64,000 nucleotides of DNA. Origin: Deltaproteobacteria bacterium. Lineage in GTDB: Bacteria; Desulfobacterota; BSN033; WVXP01. The translations under genes and the position numbers were made by a program. This document shows positions 7,205-51,073 of the stretch, piece by piece. Under the pieces are notes generated by a model. The model ran no database searches and was not told the DNA's origin. It worked only from the letters and a program-made list of their open reading frames with translations. The DNA is taken from positions 10,282 through 74,281 of the forward strand of contig JAFDHF010000003.1 of NCBI GenBank assembly GCA_019308905.1, in the 5' to 3' direction. Positions within the stretch are counted from its first letter, which is position 1. Each line of letters begins with the position of its first letter.

Positions 7205-7215
7205 TCGGTATCGAG

Positions 7216-33041: not shown

Positions 33042-34598
33042 ATGAGACTCATGACTGACCCATTGGTCCTCATTTCAGGCCTGGCCTTGGCCTGCATCGG
33101 CTACAACTCCCTCTGGTATGCCCGCTTCAGGGATTCCCTTGAGGACACTGATTTTGGGTATGCCAGCTACCACGGGTGCAAGGCCGGGAAGGAGGGGAAT
33201 CGCAGAGTCCTCTCAGAGGCCGGAGACTTTCCGTCTTTCAAGACGATCCTGTACTACTTCTTCTATTGGTCATATGGGCTTTCCAGGTCACCGGTTCGGG
33301 CTCCGCGGATTCTCTTCTGCATCGTCGATACCTTCGGCGTGATCTTCTTCTCCCTGGCTCTCTATCTGCTCTCCCGTTCACCATCTCAGACGATCATGGG
33401 CACATTGGTTTTCTGTGTCCTCTCTTCGGCCCCGCAACTCGGAGGGTTGTATCTCCAATCCGAGTTCTGGGCCCTCACGTTTACCTCCGCCGCCCTTGCC
33501 CTCATTTTGTCGAACAATCCCTTCTCCGCCTTTGCCGGGGGAATGTGTCTCGCCGTAAATCCTCTCTCTGTGAAGCCCGTCTATCTCGTGGAATCCATGG
33601 TTCTTATCTCCTTGGCGCCGGGAGATCTCAAAGCACCTGTGGGAACTGGTTTTGTTGCTTGTGCCTGTCTCATCCTATTGCTATACGGGAAGGACGGTTT
33701 CCTGGGATGGATTCCCTTCCATCTCAAGGACCGGGGGATGCTCAAGTATTTCTTGAAGTTCAACAGAAGGGGCTCAGGCAGGAGGAGGATCCGGAACCTG
33801 ATCGTATTTTTCCCTGTCTTTTTCACGGTCTTTCCACCACTGATCGCCCCTGCGTTGTCGAACCCGCAGGCCTTACCGACAAGGCTCTGGGCTTTGGCTG
33901 TTGCAGAAGGGCTTATCGTGGTGGTGCAGTTTCGGTTTTTCAGGTATCACTTCGTCACGCTTCTCCCCGGTTGGGTCTTGCTGTTTGCATGCGCCCCCTT
34001 TTCGGTTCTTCACCTCCCCGGGTTCATCCCCGTGGCGTACACCCTATCTTTCCTTTTCTTCAAGAGCAGGGAAGGCCTCGACCGGCGCCTGAACGGTGTG
34101 ATAGTCCACTACCACACGAGGAACTGTGCCGCGCGGCCTATTGCCGAATGGATCAGGGAGAACACGAGCCCCCGGGATCGCATACTGGTTGTTGGGAGTA
34201 CTTTTCAGATATACGTGCATAGCGAGAGGCTCTCTATGTATCCACGGCTGTTTTTCACACCTGAAGTTACTTACAGCAACCCACAGTCAATACGGCTCAT
34301 GGAGAAGACGTTGGCCGGAGCGCCTCCAAAGGCGATCGTCCTCGATCAGAACTGTCTGAACTGGAAGATGGTCGAGTATCTTACAGGGTCGCGCTACAGA
34401 TTCGCAAAGGGTTTCCGATGGAACTCTGAATTTTTCCCCATATACATGAAGGCAGAAAGCGTCGATCGAAAGGCCCCGGAAAACAGAGAACTCTTCATAG
34501 AGTGCCTCCATGTAACCGAGAAACGCCTTTTGTGGAATCCGATGCCGCGACCCGGAGGTATCGATCCCAACCCCACGGCTTTCTGTGAGAGCACGTGA
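33042..34598 (+). CDS. Polytopic membrane protein, GT-C-like (ArnT/PMT-type) glycosyltransferase candidate
   Basis: Many hydrophobic helices in the N-terminal 350 aa, soluble C-terminal domain. No stronger signature. Confidence 0.5.
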   Translation: MRLMTDPLVLISGLALACIGYNSLWYARFRDSLEDTDFGYASYHGCKAGKEGNRRVLSEAGDFPSFKTILYYFFYWSYGLSRSPVRAPRILFCIVDTFGVIFFSLALYLLSRSPSQTIMGTLVFCVLSSAPQLGGLYLQSEFWALTFTSAALALILSNNPFSAFAGGMCLAVNPLSVKPVYLVESMVLISLAPGDLKAPVGTGFVACACLILLLYGKDGFLGWIPFHLKDRGMLKYFLKFNRRGSGRRRIRNLIVFFPVFFTVFPPLIAPALSNPQALPTRLWALAVAEGLIVVVQFRFFRYHFVTLLPGWVLLFACAPFSVLHLPGFIPVAYTLSFLFFKSREGLDRRLNGVIVHYHTRNCAARPIAEWIRENTSPRDRILVVGSTFQIYVHSERLSMYPRLFFTPEVTYSNPQSIRLMEKTLAGAPPKAIVLDQNCLNWKMVEYLTGSRYRFAKGFRWNSEFFPIYMKAESVDRKAPENRELFIECLHVTEKRLLWNPMPRPGGIDPNPTAFCEST

Positions 34599-36901
34599 TG
34601 TCATCGGTATCCATACTCATCGGTATCGTAACAGTACAATCCCTGGTGCGGATCGTGTATTCTCTCAGGCTCTTCTTCGAGGCTGACTACTGTATGAATT
34701 CCCAATACGACGTGGTCCTTCAAAGTGGGGGCAAGCCAGGGCGGGATTTCGAAATCTGCTGGGGGGCAAAAATCGTATCGTACTTTGGATGCCGGTTGGC
34801 GAGGCGCCTGCTCCCCTTCGGTATATATGCACCACGCATCGCCCTCGTGTTTGTTCAGGTCTTGACAACCGTCGTCGTGTTTATCCTCACCCTTCACGTT
34901 TCAAATTCCCATGTCGGTGCGGTGAGTGCAGCAGCCATATACGCTGTGGTTTCGTCTCTGATCCACACCGGGACATACGTCTGTAGTCCCGAGAACTTCG
35001 ATGTAATGGCCTTGGCGGTTCTCGCCTCGTGCCTTGTCTTTCCATCGGTCGCGACGGCGGCACTGGCAGGTCTGGTGCTTGCCCTCATGATTTCGTGGTC
35101 AAAGATGGTCGACGCCTTCCATGCGGGTCCTGTGTTCTTTTTATACTGGATCAACGGTCGCAGGGGCCTGTCCTTCGTTTTTCTGGGATCGCTGGCTGTC
35201 TTCCTTGCAGCCTCGGTCGTCCATTACAGGATGAGTCCTTACTATCAGCCCCTCTCAGGGATCCTTAGGAAGGCGTATCGCTATGCTACCCGGACACAGG
35301 ACAGATCGAAGAAGAAGCTGTTCCACATCAGTCTGACAGGAGCCGAAAGGCTTCTCTGGAGGGGGCTGCTCAGGGAGATCCCGGTCGTTCTGTTCGCCCT
35401 TGCGCTCGGCCCCTTGTTCCTCTACCAGTCAGCTTCGGGCAGGGCTGTGGCGTTGCTCGCCTGGAGCGCGGTTTTTGTGATGGTCCTTCAAAACAAGCTC
35501 TGGCCGGTCCACTTCTATCCCGTGCTCTCCCTGGCCTCCGTGCTGGGCGGCTTCCTTGTGGGGGTTCCACCCCTTTGGTATGCCGTTGTCTTTCTTTTCG
35601 GAGTTTCGGTGTATCACTTCCTGAAGCCGCTATCCATACCCGGACACTTGCTTTCAAAGTATTTCTGGCGTGAAGGGACCGGCGCCCTCCATTACCTCGA
35701 TGAGGAAGCCAGCATAGAGGCGGCGGAGTGGATAAGAAGAGACTCTCCCGAGGTGAAGCGGGTTCTCTGCTGGGGGATGCAGACACAACTATATACGCTC
35801 TTGGAGATTATGGGACCAAGACCGATCCAGCATTTCAATCGAGAAACATTGACCATTCCTTCAAGGAGGGAAGAGCTCCTGAGGTGGTTCACCGAATCTC
35901 CACCGGAGTATGTATTCTTCTCCGACCCGTATTTCAGGTACTTTCCGATCCCGATTCTGGAAGGGCTCGCCGGAAAGGAATACCAGAGAGTGGCGATTCT
36001 GGGAGAAGGCTGTTTTCCCCTTTACCGGCTGACCGAAAAACCGGTCGAACAATGGAAGAGACAGGTTGCGGAGTCTGTTGGATTCGACCCGGAAAAGGTC
36101 GACTTCGTTGATCCCTTCTGCAGCAGACAGGCGATCAAAGCCGGGTTCCTCGAAGAAACCCTCGGCAGAATGAAGGGAGCCGGGATACGTTCGGTATATC
36201 TCTACGGTCGGTGTGATCAGGAGAGGATCGCGGAGGAGGCGGCCAAGAGGGGTATCGATATCATCGGCGTCGTTGAAACGGAGCCTTCAAGGGGATCCGG
36301 GGTGTTCTCTCCAAGAGAGGTTGCCTGGCCGGTGGGTGAAGAAACAGGATTTCTGATCACGGCAAGGAGTTACAATTCCATATCCCAGATCAGAGAGCTG
36401 GTAACCGAAAGGCAGCCCGGCGCGAAAATCTTCACGGTTGTGGACGAGTCTCCACTGGTAGACTGGCTCTCCGAGGAATCCAGGGAGAAACCCCTGACGG
36501 TCTACGCCCTGGGGGACAGGGGCCGGTATGTCCTGAATCTCTGCCTTTGCCGGGGTATCCGGACCGTTGGGTTCTTCGACGAAGCGGAGAAGGTCTTTCA
36601 CGGAAGGGGCAACGGTCAGGCCCGGTTCGAAGAATTGAGAGCTCTTCCACTGGATCAGGTCATTCACGGGGAGGGTACCATACTCCTTGGAGGAGCTCCA
36701 TCCACAAACGTCGCGATCTACTTTTCTCTTATCGCAAAAGGGGTGGTGGAATCGAGACTCAAGGATTTTGGAGCGATCTTCGGGCGGTGCTGTCTTCCGG
36801 GGAATTCGAGCGAGGTGAGGGTAGGGCGTTTAGATCCGGAGCGGCGGTCAAAAGATCTCTTGCCCGGGGCCGGTGAGTTCGCATCCCCCCTCTGCCCCTG
36901 A
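34595..36901 (+). CDS. Membrane protein (GT-C-like N-terminus) with two C-terminal Rossmann-like PglD/NeuD-N-like modules
   Basis: About 330-aa hydrophobic N-terminus. C-terminal IRSVYLYGRCDQ...GIDIIGVVE and VYALGDRGRYVL...GIRTVGFFDE segments repeat the module seen in three other island genes. Confidence 0.5.
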   Translation: MMSSVSILIGIVTVQSLVRIVYSLRLFFEADYCMNSQYDVVLQSGGKPGRDFEICWGAKIVSYFGCRLARRLLPFGIYAPRIALVFVQVLTTVVVFILTLHVSNSHVGAVSAAAIYAVVSSLIHTGTYVCSPENFDVMALAVLASCLVFPSVATAALAGLVLALMISWSKMVDAFHAGPVFFLYWINGRRGLSFVFLGSLAVFLAASVVHYRMSPYYQPLSGILRKAYRYATRTQDRSKKKLFHISLTGAERLLWRGLLREIPVVLFALALGPLFLYQSASGRAVALLAWSAVFVMVLQNKLWPVHFYPVLSLASVLGGFLVGVPPLWYAVVFLFGVSVYHFLKPLSIPGHLLSKYFWREGTGALHYLDEEASIEAAEWIRRDSPEVKRVLCWGMQTQLYTLLEIMGPRPIQHFNRETLTIPSRREELLRWFTESPPEYVFFSDPYFRYFPIPILEGLAGKEYQRVAILGEGCFPLYRLTEKPVEQWKRQVAESVGFDPEKVDFVDPFCSRQAIKAGFLEETLGRMKGAGIRSVYLYGRCDQERIAEEAAKRGIDIIGVVETEPSRGSGVFSPREVAWPVGEETGFLITARSYNSISQIRELVTERQPGAKIFTVVDESPLVDWLSEESREKPLTVYALGDRGRYVLNLCLCRGIRTVGFFDEAEKVFHGRGNGQARFEELRALPLDQVIHGEGTILLGGAPSTNVAIYFSLIAKGVVESRLKDFGAIFGRCCLPGNSSEVRVGRLDPERRSKDLLPGAGEFASPLCP

Positions 36902-37766
36902 GAGACCATTGCTCAGGCGCACCGTGTTGTTTTCGAACATCCATTACATAGTTCTGCGGGTGCTGAGAAGATTCGTCTTCCGCGGACGTCTTCTGTCCGT
37001 TTTCGAGAGGAACCTGCCGTACTACAGGACGAATTTCAACGAGATTTCACCCTCTACAGTAGCTGAGAAGTATTCGAAGTACTGTTCCGTTGTGGACATG
37101 AGCCCCAGAGGTAAGAACGTCCTTGAGATTGGAATCGGTGTTACAAACAGTTGTGGTTACGAAATAGTAGCGCAAGGGGCGCGCCGGTGTTGGGGTTATG
37201 AACCGTTTGAGAAGTTCAACGCGGAGCGGGACAGGGCTAGGCTCGACGACGCGGTGCAAAGACACGTGCGAGATTACGACTTCTTTCGTCACAGGTTCAC
37301 CAGAATCGACACTCTGGCCGACCTCGAGGAAGGCTCGATAGAGCTGGTTCTTTCACACAATGTCCTGGAACACGTTACTGCACTTTCAGAGCTGGTGGAC
37401 GAACTGGAGAGGCTGCTGACGAGGGACGGGTGCATGATTCATATAGTCGACTACCGTGACCATTTCTTTGAGTACCCTTATCATTTCCTGCAGTTTTCAG
37501 ACAAGACGTGGAACAGGTTCTTGAACCCCGGCCACTTGCCCAGGTACCGGCTGGACGATCACGTCGAGGCTTTCAGGAGCAAGGGGTTCACGGTTGAGAT
37601 CCTGGAGACGTCGACCGACAATGGGGAGTTTGCGAAGGTTCGCGAAAGAATCAGCCAGAAGTTCAAGGAATACAGCGAGAGGTCGTTGGCAGTGACAACG
37701 GCCGTATTGGCAGTCAGTCGCTCGAAGAACCGGCGGATCCCGGAATATCCGGGATGTGACTTTTGA
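36873..37766 (+). CDS. Class I SAM-dependent methyltransferase
   Basis: VLEIGIGVTNSCGYEIV is motif I. Downstream ELVLSHNVLEHV is motif II/III. Confidence 0.65.
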   Translation: MSSHPPSAPERPLLRRTVLFSNIHYIVLRVLRRFVFRGRLLSVFERNLPYYRTNFNEISPSTVAEKYSKYCSVVDMSPRGKNVLEIGIGVTNSCGYEIVAQGARRCWGYEPFEKFNAERDRARLDDAVQRHVRDYDFFRHRFTRIDTLADLEEGSIELVLSHNVLEHVTALSELVDELERLLTRDGCMIHIVDYRDHFFEYPYHFLQFSDKTWNRFLNPGHLPRYRLDDHVEAFRSKGFTVEILETSTDNGEFAKVRERISQKFKEYSERSLAVTTAVLAVSRSKNRRIPEYPGCDF

Positions 37767-38964
37767 CTCTGGTGGTACGGGATGTCCGGTTGGAGTGTCG
37801 AGCAAGTCGTTTCGGGATGAATGCGTAATGGTCCAGGAAGTCGTTCTCAGGAGCCTTATGCGAAAGGCAATCATGCCTTTCGGGAAATACGACGGGAAAA
37901 AGGTCTTCAACTTCACCCTCAATGTTTTGGAACGCTTCATGCGGAGGAGAAGGCTCGTGTCTTTTCCGATAGGGATCGATCTGATCAGCACGACCAGGTG
38001 TAATCTCAAATGTTTCTATTGCAAGAAGTACGACTGGGGAGGGAAACAGGATTTCACGAGGGACGACTTCGAGTTTGTTGCAAAGACGTTTTTTCCGAGA
38101 CTGTTGTATGTGAAGTTTGGATCTGCAGGTGAAGCGCTGGTCAACAGGGATCTGGGTTTTATGCTCGAGAAATGTCGTGAGTATGGCGTCTCCGTGGTAA
38201 TGAATTCGAACGGCTCCCTCCTCGATGAGGAAAAAATCGAGATGCTCTTCGAGCAGGACGTGAAGATCTTCGGGATATCACTCGACGGGGCCACAAGGGA
38301 GACGGCAGAGGGGATTCGAAGGGGCCTCGATTTTGAGCTATTGATCGAAAAGATCAGAATGATCAGAGACTTGAAGGAACGGTACGGGCGGAAGTACCCG
38401 ATCTTGACGGTCAACTTCGCCGTGATGAGACGGAATATCACGGAACTCCCGTCGTTTGTCGGCCTCATGTCGGACCTGGGAGTATCTGCCGTCCGTGTGA
38501 TGTTCCTCTACGTCCACGAGTTCATGGATCCTGGGGAATCCCTGTTCCTGCATCGGGAGCTGGTGGAGAAGTATTTTGCCTTGGCCGGGAAAAGTGCGAG
38601 GGCCTCCGGCATCAGGCTGCTCTTGCCCCCTGGGTTGGAGGGAAGAAACGGGGACAGGATGTGCTTTTTCCCCTATCACGAGATAGGACTGAGTCCTGAC
38701 GGGTCGGTCGCCTTTTGCTGTAATGCATGGGGTGAAGAGAAGATGGGGAATGTTTTCAAGCAGGATTTCATGAGTGAAATCTGGAACTCCGGGAGATACC
38801 AGGAGTTGAGGCGGCGGGTGAACAGTTCCAGGCCGATGCATACCCTCTGCCGAGAGTGCTCGGCCCTGGACAGAGGGGTCGGTGGGATCTCGAGGCATTT
38901 TGCCCGAGAGCACCACACCCGTGTAAGGGAGATGATTTTATCCCAATACGGGCGGCCTGTTTGA
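37756..38964 (+). CDS. Radical SAM / SPASM-domain protein
   Basis: CNLKCFYC (CxxxCxxC) and a C-terminal Cys cluster (CCNAWGE...CRECSALD) fit a SPASM/twitch auxiliary cluster. Probable start is ATG 37828. Confidence 0.75.
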   Translation: MTFDSGGTGCPVGVSSKSFRDECVMVQEVVLRSLMRKAIMPFGKYDGKKVFNFTLNVLERFMRRRRLVSFPIGIDLISTTRCNLKCFYCKKYDWGGKQDFTRDDFEFVAKTFFPRLLYVKFGSAGEALVNRDLGFMLEKCREYGVSVVMNSNGSLLDEEKIEMLFEQDVKIFGISLDGATRETAEGIRRGLDFELLIEKIRMIRDLKERYGRKYPILTVNFAVMRRNITELPSFVGLMSDLGVSAVRVMFLYVHEFMDPGESLFLHRELVEKYFALAGKSARASGIRLLLPPGLEGRNGDRMCFFPYHEIGLSPDGSVAFCCNAWGEEKMGNVFKQDFMSEIWNSGRYQELRRRVNSSRPMHTLCRECSALDRGVGGISRHFAREHHTRVREMILSQYGRPV

Positions 38965-39010
38965 TACAGGACATGCGCCCTTTTGGGGCCGGTGGAGGCG
39001 GTCCCTGGCC

Positions 39011-40510
39011 ATGAAAGTCGTACTCATCAATCCTCCCCAGGTATTTTCGAAGTCACAGGTTGCAGCCGGTGTCATCCCCCCCTTGGGTCTGCTCTACCTA
39101 GCCGCTGCTTTGAGGCAGTCAGGGCATGTGCCCCTGATAATCGATTCTGTTGTCGAGGCCGCAACAAATATCTACAGGATCAGCGGCAGTATTGCCTGCA
39201 GGGGGCTTGAGATCGACGAGATCGTCGCCCGTATACCGAAAGATACGGGTTTGGTGGGGGTAAGCAATCTCTTTTCTTTCGCCTTCCCGGTCGTGAAGAG
39301 GCTTACAGAGCAGATCAAGAGGGTCCGCCCGGATGTGGGAATCGCCGTGGGCGGCGCCCACCCATCGGCCTTGCCCTTGGAGACCGTGTCCGAGAAGTCG
39401 ATCGACTTTGTGGTCATAAGCGAAGGCGAGGAAACACTCACCAAACTCCTAAACAATCTGGGAGACCATGAAGCTTACAGGGGGATAGATGGGTTGGCCT
39501 ACAAGGGCAGGGAGGGAATTCCCTGCGTCAATCAGAAGGCCGAGTTTATCGAGGATCTAGATGGTCTTCCCTTCCCTGCGAGGGACCTGGTTCCCCTAGA
39601 GAAGTACTATGAGATAGGCGAGGCCCATGGTCCGACCCAGGGCAGGAGGTGGACGCCGATTCTCTCGTCAAGGGGCTGCCCGTACCAGTGTACCTTCTGT
39701 ACCCCGAGGCTGTGGGGAAGAAGATACCGCGTTAGATCGGCCGAGAACGTGCTGGCCGAGATAGAGGAGTGCCAGAGGGAGTACGGAATAAGGGAGTTTC
39801 ATTTCGAGGACGAGAACCTGACGATAGACAAGAGAAGACTCATGGAGATTTGCAATGGGATCATCGAACGAGGCCTGGAGATAAGATGGCAGACTCCCAA
39901 CGGAATAAGAGCATCTGTTACCGATGTGGAAATGCTCGATCTGATGAAGGAGTCGGGGTGCTGTCACGTCACCGTGGCTCCTGAATCAGGCTCCGAAAGG
40001 GTTCTCAACGAAATAATAAGAAAGCGGCAGGACCTCGCAAAGGTGACGCGCCTTGTCAGGCATGCCCACCGGAGGGGCCTAAAGACCGCAGCCTATTTTA
40101 TCATGGGCCTACCCGGTGAGACCAGGAAGGACGTGGAGATGTCGATCGATTATGCCTGCCGCCTGGCAAAGGCAGGACTGGACGAGGTCGTTTTCTCGAA
40201 TTTTGTTGCTCTTCCGGGTTCGGAACTTTTCGACAGGCTTCTAAAGGAGGGAAGATTCCACGGGGATTGGTCGAGACTCGTGGCCATGGGTGATATTTCG
40301 ACTGCAGAATCCTGGTCCGAGGGAATCACCTCCAGAGAGCTCAAGGCGCTGAGAAGGAAGGCCTATCTGAAGTTCCACTTGGTCAAAGCCTTTTGGTACC
40401 CACTGAAGGCCATGAGATCGGTTCTGAACGTTCTGAGAAAAAGGGAAGAGCTCAAGACAGAGAGGGTGTTGATAACCTTTATCAAGAGGATCGGCTTGAG
40501 AACGGGTTGA
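39011..40510 (+). CDS. B12-binding (class B) radical SAM enzyme
   Basis: N-terminal B12-binding fold (VVLINPP...GHVPLIID), then CPYQCTFC and the radical SAM core. Confidence 0.8.
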   Translation: MKVVLINPPQVFSKSQVAAGVIPPLGLLYLAAALRQSGHVPLIIDSVVEAATNIYRISGSIACRGLEIDEIVARIPKDTGLVGVSNLFSFAFPVVKRLTEQIKRVRPDVGIAVGGAHPSALPLETVSEKSIDFVVISEGEETLTKLLNNLGDHEAYRGIDGLAYKGREGIPCVNQKAEFIEDLDGLPFPARDLVPLEKYYEIGEAHGPTQGRRWTPILSSRGCPYQCTFCTPRLWGRRYRVRSAENVLAEIEECQREYGIREFHFEDENLTIDKRRLMEICNGIIERGLEIRWQTPNGIRASVTDVEMLDLMKESGCCHVTVAPESGSERVLNEIIRKRQDLAKVTRLVRHAHRRGLKTAAYFIMGLPGETRKDVEMSIDYACRLAKAGLDEVVFSNFVALPGSELFDRLLKEGRFHGDWSRLVAMGDISTAESWSEGITSRELKALRRKAYLKFHLVKAFWYPLKAMRSVLNVLRKREELKTERVLITFIKRIGLRTG

Positions 40511-40634
40511 ATTAGGTGGTCGAATCCCGATTCTGAGGGTTTGCGGGTTCAGCGTGTTGCCGGCTCGACAGAGGGTCGGCCGGTTTGACAACCAATCTGC
40601 CGCCGGCACTCGGTTCAGAAGGAGGACATAGCTG

Positions 40635-42065
40635 ATGAACGAAATCAAGGACGGCAACCCGAGCTTTCTTCTGATCGGGCACTACCGGTGCGGCACCTCT
40701 CTGCTGAGGCACGTGATCAACCGCCACTCCAGACTGCTACTGACGACGGAGGCTCATTGGCTCCCCCAGGTGTTTCAGGCCGGGGCGGTCTTCCAGAAAT
40801 TCTTCGAGGTTAACCCCGTTGAGTTTGAACTGAACGAGTTGCCCCTGCAGAGAACTTCCCGCTGGTATCATGGGATTCGTGCATTGCACTCGGCTCTTTT
40901 CGAAGAACATCGGGACAAGATATGGGGCATGACAGTAATCGGCCACGGAAACGCCGCATACGCCGATTATCTGTTTACCCTGTATGGGGAAGCCAAGTAC
41001 GTCCTGGCGATTCGTGATCCGAGGGATATTTACCTTTCATATCTTCGAACCAATATCGGGGGGGAATACGGTGCGTATACGTTGAAGACCTTCTTGAACC
41101 ATCTCAATATGAACGGCTTGCCGTACCTTGTAGTTCGATATGAGGACATGGTCATTGACCCGAGGAGACAGATAGAGAGGCTGTGCTGTTTTCTCGGGGT
41201 GGACTATGAACCGGGTATGCTGGAGCCACTGACTCGCAGACTGTCCGGGAACTTGACGCCGGCCCTCCAAAGGGCCGCTTTGAACGAGGAGTATCCGGTG
41301 GGAAATCGGGCACTGGTCGAAAGGTGGAAGTCCCAATTGACCGACGAGGCACTCCTGAGACTGAACGATCAGGTGGATGCCATCGATCAGTTGGGATACC
41401 CGGTCGTCAGGGCCGAGGGTGCCGGGTTGCGCCACAGCATCAGAGACGAGGTCTCGGGGACCTTGATCGGCATGAAGGACTCCCTTACCAAAAGGGATTG
41501 TTTCTCGGGTGCCCTTCCTGAAAGGGTCGACATTCTTTCGGCAGGGGCGTTCGGGATCCGATTTCAGAACCGGCCTGGCAACGGCACGGCAAGAATCAGA
41601 ATCGATGGTTTCGGAGAACTCGCTGAGAGCATGGAGTCGCCCCTGCTTTACTACCATGCCGTCTACGGATCTCCTTTACCCTTCCATCCTGTCTATGGGG
41701 AGTCTTTTCCCACTGAGAGGAAGTGGAAGTATCTGTTGAAACAGAACAAGAGGAGGCTCCTGCTCTTTTCCGCCGGAGGTGCGACCAGGGCGTTTTTATC
41801 AGGGCAAACGATCCCGACCTCGGAATTCGAGATCGTAGGCGTGATCGACAATCACAAAAGGGGATTCATGGACCATGGGGGCAAGCGGTACAGGATCTAC
41901 CCGCTCAAGAAGGCACTGGAAGTCGACCACGATGCGATTCTCATCACCTCTCCCACCTTCCGTCATGAGATAAAGGAGTGTTTGGTCAAATGCGGGCTCA
42001 GGGAGAACAGGGATTTCTACTGCTTTTTCCCAAGCCGGTGTGCGGGGAGTGGAAAGTTCGAATGA
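40635..42065 (+). CDS. Sulfotransferase (P-loop 5'-PSB type) fused to Rossmann-like PglD/NeuD-N-like module
   Basis: FLLIGHYRCGTSLLRHVINRH is the PAPS 5'-phosphosulfate-binding loop. C-terminal RLLLFSAGGATRAFL...FEIVGVIDNHKRGFMDHGGKRYRIYP...DAILITS is the repeated module. Confidence 0.7.
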   Translation: MNEIKDGNPSFLLIGHYRCGTSLLRHVINRHSRLLLTTEAHWLPQVFQAGAVFQKFFEVNPVEFELNELPLQRTSRWYHGIRALHSALFEEHRDKIWGMTVIGHGNAAYADYLFTLYGEAKYVLAIRDPRDIYLSYLRTNIGGEYGAYTLKTFLNHLNMNGLPYLVVRYEDMVIDPRRQIERLCCFLGVDYEPGMLEPLTRRLSGNLTPALQRAALNEEYPVGNRALVERWKSQLTDEALLRLNDQVDAIDQLGYPVVRAEGAGLRHSIRDEVSGTLIGMKDSLTKRDCFSGALPERVDILSAGAFGIRFQNRPGNGTARIRIDGFGELAESMESPLLYYHAVYGSPLPFHPVYGESFPTERKWKYLLKQNKRRLLLFSAGGATRAFLSGQTIPTSEFEIVGVIDNHKRGFMDHGGKRYRIYPLKKALEVDHDAILITSPTFRHEIKECLVKCGLRENRDFYCFFPSRCAGSGKFE

Positions 42066-42128
42066 AGACGTGTTTCCCTGTTCCCGTCGGAATGCACCAC
42101 GAAAATCGAACACTATAGAGGTGGAATC

Positions 42129-43211
42129 ATGATCAGCGTAGTCATACCTGTTTACAATGAAGAGAAGAACATCGATCTACTGTACGATCGGCTCTCCTCT
42201 GTTCTGTCTCAGCTAAAGTATGACTGGGAGATCATCTTTGTGAACGACGGGAGTGAAGATAATTCTCTCGAGATACTGAAAAGGTACGCAAGCCAGGACA
42301 GAAGAGTAAAAATCATAAGTCTCAGCAGGAATTTCGGCCATCAGGTCGCACTGAGCGCAGGAATGCGGGAGGCAAGGGGTGTCGTGTGTGTCACCATGGA
42401 TTGTGATCTCCAGGATCCTCCTGAGCTGATTCCAGCCATGATAAGAAAATACGAAGAAGGGAACAATATTGTCTATGCGAGGAGAACGAACAGATCCGAC
42501 GGTTTCCTGAAGAAGCTGACCGCAAGGGTCTATTACAAGATATTGGATTTGATCTCCGAGGTCCGCGTCCCCCAAAACGTCGGGGACTTCAGGTTGGTCG
42601 ACAGGAAGGTTTTGACGGTCCTGAACAACCTGCCGGAGAAATGCAGGTACCTTAGAGGTATGGTCAGTTGGGTCGGATTCAAGCAGGCCTTTGTGGAATT
42701 CGACAGGCCCAACAGATGCAATGGGAAGACCAGTTACACCTGGATAAGGATGCTTGAACTCGCTGCAGCCGGTATTCTGAGCTCCTCGCTCCTGCCACTA
42801 AAGTTGGGGATGTACATTGGAATGCTCTCGATGATTGTGGGTTTTGGGTTTCTCATATACATGATCGGAGACACTCTTGTATTCAACACCGTGTACCCTC
42901 TGTACAGGTGGCTCATGGTAGTCGTCTTTGTCTTCTTCGGGCTCAGTTTTATTCTCATTTGGATAATGGCGGAATATATAGGAAGGATCTACAAGGAAGA
43001 AACTGGAAGGCCGCTTTACATCATCGACGAGAAGACAAATCTTGAAACTCAAGTCAGTGAAGATAATCAATTGTACAGTCCCGTATGTGATTGCTCCTGG
43101 GTGGAGATGGGTGAACGGACGTTGAACGGCGACCGTGTCGATTACGGATCTGACCCTCTTGCGGCCGGGCCTGATGGAGAGAGTCTCGAAGTCGCTCACT
43201 CATTGCAGTAA
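42129..43211 (+). CDS. GT2 polyprenyl-phosphate sugar transferase (ArnC/GtrB/DPM1-like)
   Basis: MISVVIPVYNEEKNIDLLYDRL...EIIFVNDGSEDNS...DCDLQDPP, plus two C-terminal TM helices, as in ArnC/GtrB. Confidence 0.8.
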   Translation: MISVVIPVYNEEKNIDLLYDRLSSVLSQLKYDWEIIFVNDGSEDNSLEILKRYASQDRRVKIISLSRNFGHQVALSAGMREARGVVCVTMDCDLQDPPELIPAMIRKYEEGNNIVYARRTNRSDGFLKKLTARVYYKILDLISEVRVPQNVGDFRLVDRKVLTVLNNLPEKCRYLRGMVSWVGFKQAFVEFDRPNRCNGKTSYTWIRMLELAAAGILSSSLLPLKLGMYIGMLSMIVGFGFLIYMIGDTLVFNTVYPLYRWLMVVVFVFFGLSFILIWIMAEYIGRIYKEETGRPLYIIDEKTNLETQVSEDNQLYSPVCDCSWVEMGERTLNGDRVDYGSDPLAAGPDGESLEVAHSLQ

Positions 43212-43230
43212 ATATGCCGAAGCGACGGAT

Positions 43231-44379
43231 ATGGAGAAGAACATACTGATCATCAACAACGAATTTCCGCCGATCGGAGGGGGTGCCGGAAATGCCTCTT
43301 TCTACCTTGCCAAAAATCTCTCGAAACTCGGGCATAGAGTCAGGGTTGTAACTGCGGGGTTCCGTGACCTCCCTCCCAGGGAGGAGGAGGGCGGAGTCAC
43401 AATCAACCGTGTGAAATGCAGCAGAAGGAAACGGTTTGAGTCGGGGCTTTGGGAACTTCTGTCATATGCTGGAAGCGCCGTGAGATTCATATCCCGGGAA
43501 TTGAAGGCCGGCGGAGAAAGGTATGATATCTCGATATGCTTCCACACCCTTCCAGCAGGGATGGTGAGTTATGCCTTGCTAAGAAACTCGAATGTACCGT
43601 ACATAGTCATGCTGCGAGGGGGGGACGTGCCGGGTTTTCTTCCCGAGAGGTTCAGATACTACCACATGGTTTCCATGCCGGTGATCAAGGCTGTGTGGAA
43701 GAACGCACGGCACGTGGTGGCGAACTCGAAAGGACTGGGGGAGCTGGCTGGAAGAACGGCATGCAGGATCGGCCGGGAGGTCCTGGTCATAGAGAACGGC
43801 GTCGATCTTTCCTCATTTCAAGCCCGAAGCAGACACCGGTTCGATGGAACCCTGAGAATGCTCTTTGTGGGCCGGTTGGAGAAACAGAAGGGCATTCCCT
43901 ATCTGATAGAGGCCGTGTCTCTGCTCGCAGTGGAAGACCGCGAAAGGGTCAGAGTCGATCTGATCGGAGAAGGACCCGAAAGGGCGGTTTTGGAAGAGAT
44001 GATAGAGGAGAGAGGGCTCCGCAATTTCAGGTTCCTGGGGTATTTCCCTCATGACAGAATCAGCACGCGATTCGGGGAGGCGGATCTGTTCGTCCTCCCA
44101 TCCCTTTACGAAGGAATGCCGAATGCCCTTCTCGAGGCGATGGCAGGAGGGCTTCCTGCATTGGTAACGGATATCATGGGCAACAATGAATTGGTTGAGA
44201 ATGAAATAAACGGTTTTCTGGTCCCCCCTGCTGATCCGTGGGCGCTGAGGGCTGCCATAATGAGATTCCTGGAACGCCCCGAGTTGCTCTCAGAATTCCG
44301 AGAAAACACCCTGTGCAGGGTACGGAAATTCGATTGGATGAAGGCGACACAAGAGTTGAACAACCTGATAATGAGCTAG
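43231..44379 (+). CDS. GT4-family glycosyltransferase
   Basis: ILIINNEFPPIGGGAGNASFYLAKNL N-terminus and PSLYEGMPNALLEAMAGGLPALVTD (E-x7-E). ATG 43231. Confidence 0.85.
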   Translation: MEKNILIINNEFPPIGGGAGNASFYLAKNLSKLGHRVRVVTAGFRDLPPREEEGGVTINRVKCSRRKRFESGLWELLSYAGSAVRFISRELKAGGERYDISICFHTLPAGMVSYALLRNSNVPYIVMLRGGDVPGFLPERFRYYHMVSMPVIKAVWKNARHVVANSKGLGELAGRTACRIGREVLVIENGVDLSSFQARSRHRFDGTLRMLFVGRLEKQKGIPYLIEAVSLLAVEDRERVRVDLIGEGPERAVLEEMIEERGLRNFRFLGYFPHDRISTRFGEADLFVLPSLYEGMPNALLEAMAGGLPALVTDIMGNNELVENEINGFLVPPADPWALRAAIMRFLERPELLSEFRENTLCRVRKFDWMKATQELNNLIMS

Positions 44380-45437
44380 TGCCCGTCCGGAAAGCCCCTG
44401 TTCACGTCCGATCAGTTCAGAAAAAAGACTCGAGTCTCTGGGATTTCCTCGAACCACCCGACAGTCAAGAATCAAACCCGAACGGCCGCCTGTCAGATAG
44501 ACCTTATGACCGTAACACGGCTCACGTCCCCCTTTTTCGATGATGCCGGTATGATCTTCAAAAAACGAAACCACCTTCTCAGAGGCTGCAACCTTCTCCC
44601 CCCGAATCACCCGACGCTCGGTCTGATCGATCACTCGCCCGAAGATCATCAGCTCCCGCTCCAGCTTCTCCATCAATACCCGAGCCCGGCAAAACTCTCC
44701 TACATCATCGCTCTGAAAATGATCCAATGCCGATATGGCCTCTGTAGTATAACCCACAACCCGACGAGCCACCCCGAGAAGCTCTCGGTAAGCCTTCTGG
44801 CGAACTTTGCTGCTCCTGCTGTTGACAATGGCCATGACTCGCCTGTTTGCCACCCGTCGGTGGTCCGAAAACCGATACCCAGGCACAGGCCGAAGCCGTT
44901 TTCCCTCAATCAAAAGCCGAGTGATAAGCCGGATGCCATCCTCCAGAAGCCTGGAGTCCGTAGGATAATGGATATTGCTCTCAATGGCCGTGGAGTCGAG
45001 CCGAACCGTACGACCCTTCTTGAACCCTTAAACCACAGCGTATCGGATGAGCAGCCTGTTGACCGCCTCCCGGGTACCGGGCCTAAGTTGCTTGATGTTT
45101 TATTGAAGGGTCGATACCCCAGCCGCTGCCCCATCCCAAGCCGACAAGAGGCCCGAAAGGACTGAGAATCCTCCAGATGAAAGGCCAGCTCCTCATAGCT
45201 CAAATTGCGATACTGCTTCAATATGGTACATCGAAGGACCTGCTCGGCCGTCATCCCCTCACGCCCCGTGTCAGGACGCTTGGCCCGAACCATATCCCGA
45301 TAAACAAGATCATAGATGCCTGGATTGTCATCGAGAACTCTCGAAATGGCCTCCAGTTCTCGGGCGACCTGGTTGCGCGGCATGGTGTGGAAAATACTCA
45401 GTTGAGAAATCCGTTTTTCACGCATCTTTATCCCCAC
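44290..45437 (-). pseudogene. IS5/ISNCY-type transposase, frameshifted and 3'-degenerate
   Basis: N-terminal fragment (44910-45437) has a DUF772/InsH-N-like segment (...GREGMTAEQVLRCTILKQYRNLSYEELAFHL...). It continues in another frame (44290-44913) into a DDE-region remnant. The tail overlaps the upstream GT4 gene, so the reading frame is not intact. Confidence 0.65.
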
Positions 45438-45581: not shown

Positions 45582-46850
45582 ATGATCTTTCCAAAGGACA
45601 AGACGGCCGCTCCCGGGATACACCCGACCGATTCCGGGGATTTTGTCTCCCGTGCCTGTGGAGATCCCGCAGATGTATACGTGGCCGAAGACTCTGATGG
45701 CCTGTTCATGGGGGACCTGATGACCAAAACCGGAGATCCTTTCTATGAAGGATCGAGCATCTTGAAGGTTTCATACTGGTACAAGAAGTCTTTGGTGGTT
45801 CCCCGCTTCAACCTCGTCCTCTTGGAGAAGAAGATCCGGTTCCACTTGGTGGACATCTCTTCCGCGTGGAAGAAGGTAGAAGAGCAATCGGATAGGGTGG
45901 TAACGTCGATTCTTTCTACGTTTGACTTCTTTGAGAGGTCTCCCGATGCAATGGAGGATTTTGGCCGGCTCCTTGGCGACTACTACAGCAGAAAGGGTGT
46001 CGAGCTGGATAAGATGGGTCGCTCCGAAGAGGCAAAGGCGGCGATGCTTACCTCGATCTCCTGTTTCCTGAATCAGGCCGACGTGCATCGGAATCTCGCG
46101 GTGATTCTCGCCCGGCAGGGCGAGCTGGAAAGAGCCGTCCGCTACATCCGTGGTGCTTTACAAATCGATCCACGAAAAGAGGAGTACTGGTCTCTTCTGA
46201 TCGCACTGTTGAACAGATGCGGGCTCGACTCGGAAGGGATCGACTGGATGAGGAAGATGGAGGGGGTGATCCCGCCTGATCCGGGATTGCTCAGAGCCCT
46301 TGGGGCATTGGGGTTGACCTATCACCAGGAAGATATGATCGCCATTGTGCTCGGCTTGATCGAGAAGATTGAGCCAGAGGATGCCATGATAGGTCCCTTG
46401 AAATCAGCCCTGGAAGGCGATCTGAGTGAGGCGGTCAGGCAATATGAGGCACTGCCCACGAAACCGGGCAGCAGGAGCATCCCCCGGGATCTCTCAACGG
46501 CAGGGTGTGAAAGGCCCTTTTCCAACCAAGAGATGCTGAAAACGTTGAGATGTCTCCTTCCGGAGGGGAGACGGCGAATCGCGCTCTACACGGCAGGAGG
46601 AGCTACCAGATCTCTCTTGGAAAGGACCTCCTTTGCCGGCTTCGAGATTGTTTGCATCATCGACAGGGACCGTTCCGGAGGCACACTTAACGGCTATCCG
46701 ATTGTGACACTCAGCACGGCGCTGGAACAAGGAGTGGACTATATCATCGTCTCCAGCCCTGCTTTCTATAGCGAAATCAAGCCGAAACTACAGGCAAGGG
46801 GCCTTAGAGAATTCAACGATTTCAGCCCCCTCCCGCCCCACTCTTCTTGA
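45582..46850 (+). CDS. TPR-like protein fused to Rossmann-like PglD/NeuD-N-like module
   Basis: Central helical/TPR-like repeats. C-terminal RIALYTAGGATRSLL...FEIVCIIDRDRSGGTLNGYPIV...DYIIVSS is the repeated module. Start uncertain. Confidence 0.5.
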   Translation: MIFPKDKTAAPGIHPTDSGDFVSRACGDPADVYVAEDSDGLFMGDLMTKTGDPFYEGSSILKVSYWYKKSLVVPRFNLVLLEKKIRFHLVDISSAWKKVEEQSDRVVTSILSTFDFFERSPDAMEDFGRLLGDYYSRKGVELDKMGRSEEAKAAMLTSISCFLNQADVHRNLAVILARQGELERAVRYIRGALQIDPRKEEYWSLLIALLNRCGLDSEGIDWMRKMEGVIPPDPGLLRALGALGLTYHQEDMIAIVLGLIEKIEPEDAMIGPLKSALEGDLSEAVRQYEALPTKPGSRSIPRDLSTAGCERPFSNQEMLKTLRCLLPEGRRRIALYTAGGATRSLLERTSFAGFEIVCIIDRDRSGGTLNGYPIVTLSTALEQGVDYIIVSSPAFYSEIKPKLQARGLREFNDFSPLPPHSS

Positions 46851-46896: not shown

Positions 46897-47859
46897 ATGC
46901 CTTCGTTTATTTGCGATTTCTTGAAGGAGATCGTCGTCTTGTCCGACGGTGGTGTGACAACCTGCTGCATGGATCCCCTGGGAATGAACCGTTTCGGCAG
47001 CATTTACAGGGACAGCTTTGAAGATATCCAGGCAAGATATATGAGCGTCCGCCGGAGAATAACGAAAGATGTTCTCCTTATGCCCCGATGTTCCAGGTGC
47101 TTCAATAAGATCAAGGAACAAGGCTTTCCCGAGACGGGGACTTACAAGGTCGATCCGGATTCAGCAGAAATCAGGAGGTTTATCGACAGAGGAAGGGACG
47201 ATGTATTTCAGCTCGTGATCGAGCTTTCTTCCAAATGCAACCTCAAGTGTAATGGCTGCATGCAGAGCCGGGTGAATTTTGAAGAATACAGGGCCGATCC
47301 TTTCCTCGACGTCGACTATCTGCAGTCATGGGTGGGCCGATACTGGGGCGAAGTCAAGAAGATACGCCTCTACAATTACGGTGAGACTTTCATGCACCCG
47401 GGGGCACTGGGATTCTGCTCTTTTGTCAAGAAACACGGTCCTGACACCGTGGTTGAGATTGCGACCAACGGAATGCTGCTGGATACGCACGAAAAGAGAA
47501 GGGAAATCGTCTTGTCCGGGGTCGACGATATCGTCTTTTCGATTCACGGAAGCAGCCAAGAGATCATACAGAAGTATATGACCAGGAAGTTCTCTTTTGA
47601 AAAGGTTCTGGATACCTTGAAGGACCTTGCAGCGATCAAGCATGAGCTCGGCTTCTCGAAGCCGAGATTGTTCTGGAAGTATCTCCTCTTTGAATGGAAC
47701 GACTCGGACGAGGAGATAACGAGGGCTAGAACCTTATCCAGGGAAATCGGGCTTGAGGGCGTGATCTTCGGCCTGGTGGGATTTCCGGCCCCTTCAAGAC
47801 GTTTTACACGACACAGCGAAGAGTGGAAACGCCTCGTGAGGGAATCCCAGGCTCTTTGA
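46897..47859 (+). CDS. Radical SAM domain protein
   Basis: SSKCNLKCNGC (CxxxCxxC). An additional N-terminal Cys pair/cluster (TTCCMDP...CSRC). Confidence 0.65.
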   Translation: MPSFICDFLKEIVVLSDGGVTTCCMDPLGMNRFGSIYRDSFEDIQARYMSVRRRITKDVLLMPRCSRCFNKIKEQGFPETGTYKVDPDSAEIRRFIDRGRDDVFQLVIELSSKCNLKCNGCMQSRVNFEEYRADPFLDVDYLQSWVGRYWGEVKKIRLYNYGETFMHPGALGFCSFVKKHGPDTVVEIATNGMLLDTHEKRREIVLSGVDDIVFSIHGSSQEIIQKYMTRKFSFEKVLDTLKDLAAIKHELGFSKPRLFWKYLLFEWNDSDEEITRARTLSREIGLEGVIFGLVGFPAPSRRFTRHSEEWKRLVRESQAL

Positions 47860-47902: not shown

Positions 47903-49057
47903 ATGGAGGAATGGTCTCCGCCGAAGAGATGGAATCCTTTCAACAGCAACAAACTCCTAGCCCAGGTATACCGGTGGCGCCTGATAAAGAGGGGAGCCTC
48001 TCTGCCTCAACCGGTTCTCGTCACGGTCGACCCGATAAACGCATGTAACCTGAGATGCACGTGGTGCAATTCCCGGTTCGTGTTGAGAAATCGGAACGGA
48101 ATGATAGATCGAGAAGCGCTGATGGAAATCGCAGAGGGTCTGGCCCGCTGGCAGGGCAGTCCTGACTGGCCGGCCGGGGTTGAGGCGGTCTGCATCGCGG
48201 GTGGAGGGGAACCTCTCCTGCATCCTGATGTTGGCGCTTTTATCGAATCCTGCATCGACAATGGGATCGAGGTGGGGGTGGTTACCAACGGAGTCAATAT
48301 CGACAGGTTCATCCCCCAGCTCGCCCTCTGCACTTGGGTAGGGGTTTCGGTGGATGCCGGTTCTCGCAAGACGTTCGAATCACTCAAAGGGAGGGACCTT
48401 TTCAACGAGGTCTGCAGGAACATGAGGAGTCTGTCGGACTATCTGTCGCGGAATGCCTGTACCTTAGGCCGCGAAGGCTCGGGCCGGGGGGTGAGCTACA
48501 AGTATCTACTGTACGACGGGAATATCGACGAGGTTTTCGAGGCAGCGAGGATAGCAAAGGAGGTGGGGGCCAAGAACTTTCATCTCCGTCCCGCAGGAAC
48601 CCCGTGGCATCTTCTCCCTGGGAGAAGTGGGTCGGTTTTTCACGGAGATGCCAAGATGAGACTCGGTGAGCAGATTGACAAGGCCCGTGAGCTCGAAGAT
48701 GAAACCTTCGGTGTCTATGCGATTACGCATAAGTTCGGTCCCGAGTTGGAGATCGCGAACAACTTCGACACATGCCATGCTATCTTCATGACAGCGGTTT
48801 TCATGCCGCCGAGGGATGAGAGAAGAGAGAGGTTTTGCGTGAGCTGCTGCTGTGACAGGCGCGGCGACCCCAGGCTGGAGTTTGGAGAATCTCTCAGGGA
48901 ATTCAAACAGGTGGAAGAGTTGTGGGGATCCGAGAAACACTGGCAGATATTCGACCGGATCGATCTGAAAGATTGCCCGCGGTGTACTTACGCACCCCAT
49001 AATCAGATGTTCACCCAGGTCATAGAGAGAGATGACATGACCTATAAGTTCATCTAG
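47903..49057 (+). CDS. Radical SAM / SPASM-domain protein
   Basis: NACNLRCTWC, and a C-terminal CVSCCCDRRG...DCPRCTY Cys cluster. Confidence 0.75.
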   Translation: MEEWSPPKRWNPFNSNKLLAQVYRWRLIKRGASLPQPVLVTVDPINACNLRCTWCNSRFVLRNRNGMIDREALMEIAEGLARWQGSPDWPAGVEAVCIAGGGEPLLHPDVGAFIESCIDNGIEVGVVTNGVNIDRFIPQLALCTWVGVSVDAGSRKTFESLKGRDLFNEVCRNMRSLSDYLSRNACTLGREGSGRGVSYKYLLYDGNIDEVFEAARIAKEVGAKNFHLRPAGTPWHLLPGRSGSVFHGDAKMRLGEQIDKARELEDETFGVYAITHKFGPELEIANNFDTCHAIFMTAVFMPPRDERRERFCVSCCCDRRGDPRLEFGESLREFKQVEELWGSEKHWQIFDRIDLKDCPRCTYAPHNQMFTQVIERDDMTYKFI

Positions 49058-49104: not shown

Positions 49105-49923
49105 ATGGAGAAGGTAAGCATTGTCATTCCGAATTATAACCAGGTGAAATACCTCCCCGCATGTATCGACAGTTGCTATTTTCAAACCTATCCGAATATC
49201 GAGCTGATCATTGTCGACGGGGGGTCGACCGACGGAACAAAAGAATATCTGGCAGGCCTTGAGCAGAGGATCGAAAGCGAGAAGGTCGCTCCTGTACTCT
49301 ATATGGACGGGAACGGAGAGATAGTCTACAAGGAGTGCCTGGCCTACCATGAAGACACCCATGCCGAACATCCGAAACGTGAAATAAAGATATTTTCTTT
49401 TCGTGAAAACCTGGGCAGGACGCGCTCTTATAATGTGGGTTTCAAAGAAGTCACGGGTAGATACTGCACATATGTCGTCGGGGATGACATTGCGCATCCC
49501 CATATGATAGAAGAACTCGTTTCGGCGATAGAGGCAAGTAACGCGGATGTGGTCTATTCCGATTTCAATATAGTCGATGATACAGGGCACATCCTCCGTC
49601 TCGTGCGCAAACCGGACTACGATTTTGAGGAATGTCTTGCCAAGTGGTTCCATCTAGGCGTTTCCCGCCTTCACCGGTCGTCATGGTTCAAAAAAGTGGG
49701 ATTCATGGATGAGGACTTCCGGGTGGCCAACGATTACAGCTTCTTCCTCAAGATGGCCAAAGCCGGGGCGACCTTTCATCACGTCGCGAGGGTCCTGTAT
49801 TCGGTCCGCTTCCACGGTGCCGAAACGGACCTGGAGGAATCTAAGAAGCTCGCTTTAGAGGCAAGGCGATTCATCTGTTCAGGCGGGAGGAAAGAGGAGC
49901 AACTCCACCTTAACGGTGTATAG
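49105..49923 (+). CDS. GT2-family glycosyltransferase
   Basis: VSIVIPNYNQVKYLPACIDSCYFQTYPNIELIIVDGGSTDGT is the GT-A signature. Confidence 0.85.
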   Translation: MEKVSIVIPNYNQVKYLPACIDSCYFQTYPNIELIIVDGGSTDGTKEYLAGLEQRIESEKVAPVLYMDGNGEIVYKECLAYHEDTHAEHPKREIKIFSFRENLGRTRSYNVGFKEVTGRYCTYVVGDDIAHPHMIEELVSAIEASNADVVYSDFNIVDDTGHILRLVRKPDYDFEECLAKWFHLGVSRLHRSSWFKKVGFMDEDFRVANDYSFFLKMAKAGATFHHVARVLYSVRFHGAETDLEESKKLALEARRFICSGGRKEEQLHLNGV

Positions 49924-50998: not shown

Positions 50999-51073
50999 AT
51001 GGAGTTTTGTCCCGCCCCGTGGTGCCGGACCTGTGTGATCAGGCGGGAATAGGATTTGCTTCGCTTCGGAATC

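Follow-up and report, generated by a model that had tools for sequence, protein, structure and literature searches.

Sulfotransferase gene and its active site

The window analysed here, a 64-kb stretch of DNA from a member of the Deltaproteobacteria (contig JAFDHF010000003.1), contains a complete open reading frame (ORF) at positions 40635-42065 of the plus strand whose 476-amino-acid product consists of a sulfotransferase domain, a beta-rich middle domain and a Rossmann-like module. The ORF lies inside a long run of glycan genes that is bordered by flagellar genes, and all positions given below are those of the window. The start of the ORF is well defined because a Shine-Dalgarno sequence precedes the ATG and there is an in-frame stop immediately 5' of it. 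The product was identical to NCBI protein MBW2056249.1, encoded on a contig of 156 kb and listed as 'MAG: sulfotransferase [Deltaproteobacteria bacterium]'; the enzyme class is ordinary, and the sulfotransferase annotation already existed in NCBI. A hydropathy scan of the protein detected no transmembrane (TM) segments, and the protein is predicted to be soluble and cytoplasmic. The GC content of the gene and its GC content at third codon positions (GC3) were those of its neighbours, and no terminator was found between the gene and the genes on either side.

40621-40625, plus strand: Shine-Dalgarno sequence GGAGG, 9 nt ahead of the ATG, read from the sequence
40635-42065, plus strand: complete ORF, 476 amino acids (aa), sulfotransferase domain, beta domain and Rossmann-like module (ORF call, Pfam, AlphaFold)
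40635-41390, plus strand: sulfotransferase domain, aa 1-252 (Pfam Sulfotransfer_3 and Sulfotransfer_1; Foldseek matches to TPST1/2 and to the sulfotransferase (ST) domains of olefin synthase (OLS) and CurM at probability 1.0)
40677-40706, plus strand: 5'-phosphosulfate-binding (5'-PSB) loop GHYRCGTSLL, aa 15-24 (R18, G20 and T21 invariant; aligns with SSPRSGSTLL of OLS and CurM)
40749-40751, plus strand: Glu39, predicted catalytic base (invariant in the family; TTEAHWLP aligns with PPELHLLP of OLS and CurM, structures 4gox and 4gbm)
41010-41039, plus strand: 3'-phosphate-binding (3'-PB) motif IRDPRDIYLS, aa 126-135, with R127 and S135 (invariance and PDB alignments)
41136-41147, plus strand: invariant RYED, aa 168-171 (family alignment and phmmer alignments)
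41406-41660, plus strand: beta-rich, family-specific middle domain, aa 258-342 (AlphaFold; conserved G279, G304, G307 and G327)
41712-42029, plus strand: Rossmann-like module, aa 360-465 (invariant loop A380-G-G-A-T384, D405, S439 and E445; weak Pfam match to C2185-like_N)

Two Pfam families matched the N-terminal domain well above their cut-offs: Sulfotransfer_3 over aa 11-193 (E 2.3e-15, 57.9 bits compared to a cut-off of 27) and Sulfotransfer_1 over aa 118-244 (E 2.8e-11, 43.8 bits compared to a cut-off of 22). A sulfotransferase match of this kind was present in all six of the family members compared. When the protein was searched against the PDB with phmmer, the best match was the ST domain of the Synechococcus OLS (4gox; E 7.5e-9), followed by the ST domain of CurM (4gbm; E 1.9e-6) and then by tyrosylprotein sulfotransferases (TPSTs; E 0.0035 to 0.16).

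The residues expected to bind 3'-phosphoadenosine 5'-phosphosulfate (PAPS) were all in place. In the 5'-PSB loop, R18-C-G20-T21-S22 fits the pattern (K/R)-x-G-(S/T)-(S/T) after strand 1, with YRCGTSLL aligned opposite PRSGSTLL of the OLS and CurM domains. In the 3'-PB motif, R127 and S135 provide the arginine and the serine eight residues apart that align with those of TPST, OLS and CurM; IRDPRDIYLS lies opposite VRHPYAVIES of the OLS domain and IRDGRAVVHS of a TPST. Further along, RYEDMV of the ORF protein was placed opposite IYEDLV in the PDB alignments. Across the six family members, which are 31-42 % identical, R18, G20, T21, E39, R127, D128, R130, D131, S135 and R168-Y-E-D171 were invariant.

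The catalytic base of sulfotransferases is a histidine in the SULTs and a glutamate in TPST, the CurM ST domain and heparan sulfate sulfotransferases. The glutamate of PPELHLLP, which we take to be the catalytic base of the CurM domain, is the residue with which Glu39 aligns, and by this analogy Glu39 would act as the base. TPST likewise uses a glutamate rather than a histidine.

The fold led to the same class. An AlphaFold model built with a 42-sequence alignment had a predicted local distance difference test score (pLDDT) of 89.6 and a predicted template modelling score (pTM) of 0.88, and it replaced a single-sequence run with a pLDDT of 35. Foldseek found 39 matches to the model in the PDB at E ≤ 0.001, and all those listed were sulfotransferases, in the order TPST1/2, OLS ST, CurM ST, and then Stf9, heparan sulfate 3-O-sulfotransferases and SULTs. 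The top matches were human and tick TPSTs (E 1.5e-9, probability 1.0), at 16-20 % identity and with moderate TM-scores.

At the level that sequence analysis allows, these results establish that the ORF encodes an intact PAPS-type sulfotransferase with a predicted glutamate base. The intact PAPS-binding and catalytic motifs predict PAPS-dependent sulfate transfer. The original prediction had identified a PAPS-type enzyme from the GHYRCGTSLL loop, and the Pfam match, the PDB matches, the invariant motifs and the fold all bear this out.

The two groups of solved relatives resemble the ORF protein in different respects. TPST1 and TPST2 (3ap1-3, 5wri/j, 8w5z) share its fold, an RxGT(T/S) 5'-PSB loop and an RD(G/P)R...S 3'-PB motif. 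However, TPSTs reside in the Golgi lumen, act on peptide tyrosines and have no counterpart of the C-terminal beta and Rossmann-like parts, whereas the context of the ORF protein is one of sugar metabolism. In the ST domains of CurM and OLS, the solved structures closest to the ORF protein in sequence, the PSB loop, the Glu-x-His sequence, the 3'-PB motif and RYEDLV can all be aligned with the ORF protein. These domains differ in being parts of polyketide synthase (PKS) megasynthases that act on beta-hydroxyacyl chains on acyl carrier protein (ACP), with other fusion partners; scans of the window turned up no PKS, ACP or thioesterase.

Middle domain and Rossmann-like module

Approximately 220 residues continue after the sulfotransferase domain in the same ORF, so that the protein is a genuine fusion. 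The AlphaFold model is divided into the sulfotransferase domain (aa 1-252), a beta-rich part (aa 258-342) and a part of alternating strands and helices (aa 360-465). The middle domain had been overlooked in the earlier description of the ORF; sequence searches of Pfam and the PDB found no relatives of it.

The C-terminal module has a Rossmann-like layout. In the family alignment and the model, the AGGAT loop follows strand 1 and D405 follows strand 2, within a beta-alpha-beta arrangement that has a glycine-rich loop and an acidic residue after strand 2. A profile of ten module sequences matched the Rossmann domain of Rex (5zz5; E 8.3e-5), 2g6t (E 3.1e-4), which we take to be the founder of the Pfam family C2185-like_N, and 3nkl, the N-domain of UDP-quinovosamine 4-dehydrogenase (E 0.019), in the PDB. 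C2185-like_N (PF22674) was also listed in the precomputed annotations of the ORF protein and two relatives; in a direct Pfam scan the match was weak, being found in two of six members with a best E of 0.006. A nucleotide-binding Rossmann domain would fit the module because of the glycine-rich loop and the acidic residue that closes strand 2, together with the profile matches to Rex and to the N-domain of a UDP-sugar dehydrogenase.

The C-terminal domain of Rex, C2185-like_N (2g6t) and the CapD/WbpM-type N-domain (3nkl) are all small and Rossmann-like, with a glycine-rich loop after strand 1 and an aspartate after strand 2, as in the module. The loop of Rex, however, is GxGxxG, in contrast to S/T-A-G-G-A-T here. 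The module profile gave no matches in a word-indexed search, and no literature was found on 2G6T, CAC2185 or HI1244.

The ORF had been proposed to be a sulfotransferase fused to a recurrent PglD-N-like module. The AlphaFold model supports a Rossmann-like fusion; the PglD-N label failed in the sequence searches. Pfam PglD_N had no match at E ≤ 10 in the ORF protein or at E ≤ 1 in any of six members, and no PglD entry appeared in the PDB search with the module profile at E ≤ 10. A PglD_N/NeuD-type identity was rejected on these grounds, with Rex and C2185-like_N matched instead. The C-terminal domain of sugar C-methyltransferases (Methyltransf_14) was rejected as well, since hhalign gave a probability of 1.3 % against a bona fide example from one of the relatives' loci (L005).

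The module does recur in the window, as had been claimed, with one strong and one weak further copy.

46542-46838, plus strand: second copy of the module, at the C terminus of the TPR protein encoded at 45582-46850 (BLAST, hidden Markov model (HMM))
20408-20656, plus strand: distant third copy, at the C terminus of the winged helix-turn-helix (wHTH; MarR_EPS-like) protein encoded at 20087-20707 (HMM, E 1e-4 to 8e-4)

The C terminus of the TPR protein was 42 % identical to the module (BLAST E 1.7e-14), and it was also detected with a module HMM built only from sequences outside the window (E 4e-28). The fusion of a wHTH domain to a copy of the module gives the protein encoded at 20087-20707 a Rex-like layout, and this protein may regulate the gene cluster by sensing nucleotides or redox state. 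Its gene (plus strand) lies directly upstream of a NeuB gene. Additional copies considered in the C-terminal part of the protein encoded by the ORF at 34595 were not significant (hhalign E 0.038; hmmsearch E 6.5).

Relatives, gene neighbourhood and possible acceptors

When 1.84 billion representative proteins were scanned in full with HMMER, only seven relatives of aa 256-476 were recovered. The sulfotransferase-beta-Rossmann layout is shared by five of them (442-482 aa), a sixth is extended at the N terminus and the seventh (P0025) is a fusion to a family 2 glycosyltransferase (GT2). Family patterns run against the GTDB species genomes and the JGI metagenomes yielded only generic relatives of the sulfotransferase domain and no further full-length member; one candidate (L115) was rejected because it consists of two tandem, unrelated sulfotransferase genes. 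The three-part architecture is rare and undescribed. What is new about the ORF protein is its architecture, within an enzyme class that is well known; its context is unusual and suggestive.

The relative P0019 (locus L002), which is 42 % identical to the ORF protein, is encoded among orthologues of seven genes of the window.

34595-40510, plus strand: upstream genes syntenic in L002, 37-65 % identity: multi-pass membrane protein (34595; 37 %), methyltransferase (36873; 43 %), radical SAM-SPASM protein (37756; 55 %) and B12-dependent radical SAM protein (39011; 65 %)
42129-44379, plus strand: downstream genes syntenic in L002: PgfS/ArnC-like GT2 with TM helices (42129; 66 % identity) and GT4 (43135; 55 % identity)
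49105-49923, plus strand: GT2 (52 % identity); in L002 its counterpart immediately precedes the sulfotransferase gene of P0019

The slot occupied by the sulfotransferase gene differs between the two loci, as expected of a gene that is functionally linked to its neighbours but mobile. The neighbours of P0022 (locus L005) encode NeuB, a B12-dependent radical SAM enzyme, a radical SAM enzyme and glycosyltransferases, and P0024, which is WP_264981614.1 of the cultured Pseudodesulfovibrio portus JCM 14722T, borders a cluster of genes for AsnB-type amidotransferases, glycosyltransferases, sugar epimerase/dehydratases and a methyltransferase. The context of P0021 (locus L001) was different, with a methyltransferase gene followed by ExbBD/TonB genes. 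Methyltransferases, radical SAM and B12-dependent radical SAM enzymes and glycosyltransferases abound in the glycan-tailoring clusters where most members of the family are encoded. P0022 (L005 10001-12241) is the relative with the extra N-terminal region; in this 746-aa protein the extra region resembles another sulfotransferase P-loop (GKVGSVS), and the 5'-PSB loop of the family domain appears degenerate (PRGDGALV).

The P. portus locus also bears on the supply of PAPS, which is made by APS kinase (the kinase of adenosine 5'-phosphosulfate). In the P. portus sequence AP026708.1 an APS kinase gene lies approximately 10 kb from the P0024 gene (L004 21116-21362, minus strand), 13 bp from an adjacent AsnB gene on the same strand and with a methyltransferase gene next to these, all inside the glycan cluster. 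Translation confirmed the C-terminal RDPKGLYKKA motif of the kinase. Among the indirect indications that PAPS is used by the family, this predicted APS kinase is the strongest available. The hypothesis is directly testable, because a member of the family is present in a cultured, sequenced organism that has APS kinase in the same cluster.

In the window itself, glycan genes are bracketed by flagellar and Maf-type genes, which makes the locus a flagellar glycosylation island by position and content.

35-9575: genes for FlgI, FlgK, FlgL, FliW, flagellin and FliD
6362-9575, plus strand: flagellin (280 aa) and FliD, upstream border of the island (domain scan)
28267-29703, 37756-38964, 39011-40510, 46897-47859, 47903-49057 and 49916-50998, plus strand: six radical SAM genes (domain scans)
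44290-45437, minus strand: IS5/DUF772-type transposase remnant, two adjacent ORFs, apparently split, 2.2 kb downstream of the sulfotransferase gene
56702-63132, plus strand: two proteins with Maf_N, DUF3880 and Glyco_trans_1_2 domains, a GT9 and a weakly FlgN/FliT-like ORF, downstream border of the island (domain scan)

Approximately 52 kb of co-directional glycan genes extend from fliD to the Maf-like genes, and the sulfotransferase gene is inside this array. The array encodes TPR-glycosyltransferases, glycosyltransferases of families GT1, GT2, GT4 and GT9, methyltransferases, a NeuB-HAD fusion, a GmhA-like isomerase, a PseF-like cytidylyltransferase, AsnB, a GNAT protein, a deacetylase and the six radical SAM enzymes. 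The Maf_flag10_N proteins start at 56702 and 60266, and the FlgN/FliT-like ORF (62692-63132) scored below the Pfam cut-offs. The flagellar glycan setting that had been suggested for the sulfotransferase gene is thus borne out by the flagellar genes at 35-9575, NeuB, the CMP-transferase and the Maf-N-type proteins. The island is a rearranged mosaic, as indicated by the transposase remnant. The NeuB-type nonulosonate synthase (20750-22276, plus strand) has an N-terminal fusion to a HAD domain that resembles KdsC and KDN-9-phosphate phosphatase, which suggests a 9-phosphate route to nonulosonic acid.

These findings suggest that the ORF protein is probably an O-sulfotransferase of the Sulfotransfer_3 type, soluble, located in the cytoplasm and dependent on PAPS, that acts on a glycan building block of the island. 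PAPS would be held by the 5'-PSB loop and the 3'-PB motif, and Glu39 would deprotonate a sugar hydroxyl of a building block made by the island enzymes, with in-line transfer of the sulfate. More tentatively, the Rossmann-like module may hold the substrate by its nucleotide or carrier portion, or it may dock to partners that have the same module, for which the TPR protein (45582) and the wHTH protein (20087) are candidates. The sulfated sugar would then be incorporated into the glycan of the island. The locus hints that this bacterium sulfates a flagellar or other surface glycan.

Sulfate esters are rare on bacterial glycoconjugates, known cases including Nod factors, rhizobial lipopolysaccharide (LPS) and mycobacterial sulfolipids. 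The rhizobial enzymes NodH, NoeE and LpsS and the mycobacterial Stf0 are PAPS dependent and sulfate sugars of surface or secreted glycoconjugates, and they are the functional analogy that we favour for the ORF protein. These enzymes differ from it in having no C-terminal domains and in being encoded outside flagellar islands, and similarity to them was low (NoeE, E 1.3e-4; Stf0 Pfam match in two of six members, E 0.013).

Searches of the open-access literature found neither a bacterial flagellin that carries a sulfate ester nor a sulfotransferase encoded in a flagellar glycosylation island of a bacterium, although an older report in a subscription journal is possible. This agrees with the earlier statement that sulfated flagellin glycans are essentially undescribed in bacteria. 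Sulfation had been noted for some archaeal glycoproteins: in Halobacterium salinarum, VNG1056C and VNG1057C sulfate sugars of the N-glycan on archaellin and the S-layer protein (PMC11980604). These are sulfotransferases for the glycan of a motility filament, as the enzyme described here may be. They differ in that they are archaeal, the glycan is N-linked and assembled on a lipid carrier, and the archaellum is unrelated to the bacterial flagellum. The sole sulfur-oxyanion decoration found on a bacterial flagellin is that of Clostridium difficile type B flagellin. It is a sulfonate rather than a sulfate ester, carried on a sulfonated peptidylamido sugar, and the authors state that the locus has no glycosulfotransferase gene (PMC5207246). 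Increments of +80 Da on Aeromonas hydrophila flagellin were assigned to phosphate, and the locus contains phosphotransferase genes.

Several observations weigh against the mechanism proposed here or, more specifically, against flagellin as the destination. The closest solved relatives use proteins (TPST) or acyl-ACP (CurM and OLS) rather than sugars, and the match to NoeE in NCBIfam was marginal (20.8 bits compared to a cut-off of 500). The PDB and Pfam matches of the module are weak, and a nucleotide-binding role for it is something that we infer. No genes for PAPS synthesis were found in the 64-kb window; the search for APS kinase was made with tblastn, which used E. coli CysC as one of two queries, and with a P-loop motif. 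No flagellar genes were present within 10 kb of the genes for P0019, P0021, P0022 and P0024. Flagellin glycosylation is cytoplasmic, but the genes adjacent to the sulfotransferase gene suggest, by the similarities of their products, a polyprenyl-phosphate-sugar route outside the cytoplasm. A lipid-carrier, extracytoplasmic step is implied by the GT2 at 42129-43211 (plus strand), which has C-terminal TM helices, aligned along its entire length with PgfS (E 4.4e-72) and also matched ArnC (E 2.7e-48), and by two multi-pass membrane proteins encoded nearby at 33042-34598 and 34595-36901 (plus strand). The latter have approximately 7 and 10 hydrophobic segments, respectively, and soluble C-terminal parts; no relatives of either were found in Pfam, NCBIfam or the PDB, and the label 'GT-C-like' for them would be a guess.

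If the acceptor is a carbohydrate, flagellin and another envelope glycoconjugate appear about equally probable as its destination. A product bound for LPS, capsule or a periplasmic or surface glycoprotein would be assembled via a polyprenyl-phosphate carrier, and the genes at 33042-44379 would then form a separate glycan module within the flagellar island. The PgfS/ArnC-like GT2 with its TM helices and the two membrane proteins just upstream, one of them syntenic in L002, are consistent with such a route, but the PgfS and ArnC matches were under the curated cut-offs and the membrane proteins had no family match. The relatives' loci without nearby flagellar genes, one of which ends at a lipid A acyltransferase gene, and the rearrangement of the island indicated by the insertion sequence remnant at 44290-45437 point in the same direction. 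However, the whole array of approximately 52 kb is co-directional and bracketed by fliD on one side and the Maf-type and FlgN/FliT-like genes on the other, and the composition matches that of the rest of the island. A non-flagellar target is, in our judgment, a possibility on the unlikely side. The idea of a sulfated flagellin is plausible; that a stable sulfate ester is carried by a bacterial flagellin glycan here is proposed only tentatively.

Two further explanations place the reaction outside ordinary glycan sulfation. It is improbable that the enzyme is an activating sulfotransferase, in which case sulfate would be a transient leaving group on a sugar, such as a nonulosonate, or on an acyl intermediate, neighbouring tailoring enzymes, with the conserved radical SAM or B12 enzymes as candidates, would eliminate, decarboxylate or rearrange the product, and the final product would be free of sulfate. 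The OLS and CurM domains are the best solved-structure matches (E 7.5e-9 and 1.9e-6) with the Glu-x-His sequence aligned, SgdX2, an 'activating sulfotransferase', was among the fold matches, and radical SAM and B12-dependent radical SAM tailoring genes are conserved neighbours. However, an identity of only approximately 20 % reflects similarity across Sulfotransfer_3 in general, His41 varies among the family members, TPSTs fit equally well by fold, and domain scans of the window found no PKS, ACP or thioesterase partner. If true, this explanation would bring the use of sulfate as a leaving group from polyketide pathways into bacterial glycan biosynthesis. Direct sulfation of flagellin or another protein by a TPST/RaxST-like protein tyrosine sulfotransferase is very improbable. 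Human and tick TPSTs did head the Foldseek matches (E 1.5e-9, probability 1.0), and TPSTs were matched by sequence (E 0.0035 to 0.16), but 16-20 % identity and moderate TM-scores show a shared fold family and not a shared specificity. Furthermore, every relative with known context is encoded among sugar-modifying genes, and no gene for a peptide substrate is evident.

If the enzyme sulfates a glycan building block, as we consider probable, a dedicated sulfotransferase family in flagellar and glycan-tailoring islands would bring in a strongly anionic modification that is new to the repertoire. Such a modification would bear on the surface charge and bundling of the filament, phage attachment and immune recognition.

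Radical SAM genes and other neighbours

Radical SAM tailoring chemistry is unusual for a flagellin glycan. Of the six radical SAM proteins, the one encoded at 39011 carries a Pfam B12-binding domain, and this protein and that encoded at 28267 had their best matches to B12-dependent radical SAM families of NCBIfam. The best match of 39011 was to the Sden_1168 P-methyltransferase family (249 bits compared to a cut-off of 575).

SPASM radical SAM genes do adjoin the sulfotransferase gene, as had been noted (37756, 46897 and 49916), but a proposed connection to sulfatases or to their anaerobic maturation enzymes (anSME) found no support. The best NCBIfam matches of 37756-38964 were to a tungsten-cofactor maturase and similar families, all far under the cut-offs, and there was no anSME model among the 25 best matches shown; 46897 and 49916 were scanned against Pfam only. 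No sulfatase domain was present among the plus-strand ORFs of the window that were scanned. In the protein encoded at 46897-47859 (plus strand) the usual domain order is inverted, with the SPASM domain (aa 10-68) placed N-terminally to the radical SAM core (aa 109-246); either the protein is permuted or the gene is mis-joined or truncated.

A flavoprotein gene at 51056-52627 (plus strand) encodes an FAD protein that resembles L-aspartate oxidase and fumarate reductase, with scores below every equivalog cut-off. It was considered as a candidate for AprA (APS reductase) and rejected, since it matched NadB/fumarate reductase instead. Downstream of the sulfotransferase gene, the 3' end of the GT2 gene at 42129-43211 overlaps the GTG-called start of the next gene, the GT4 at 43135, by 77 nt, and because of this overlap the true start of the GT4 gene is probably a later ATG.

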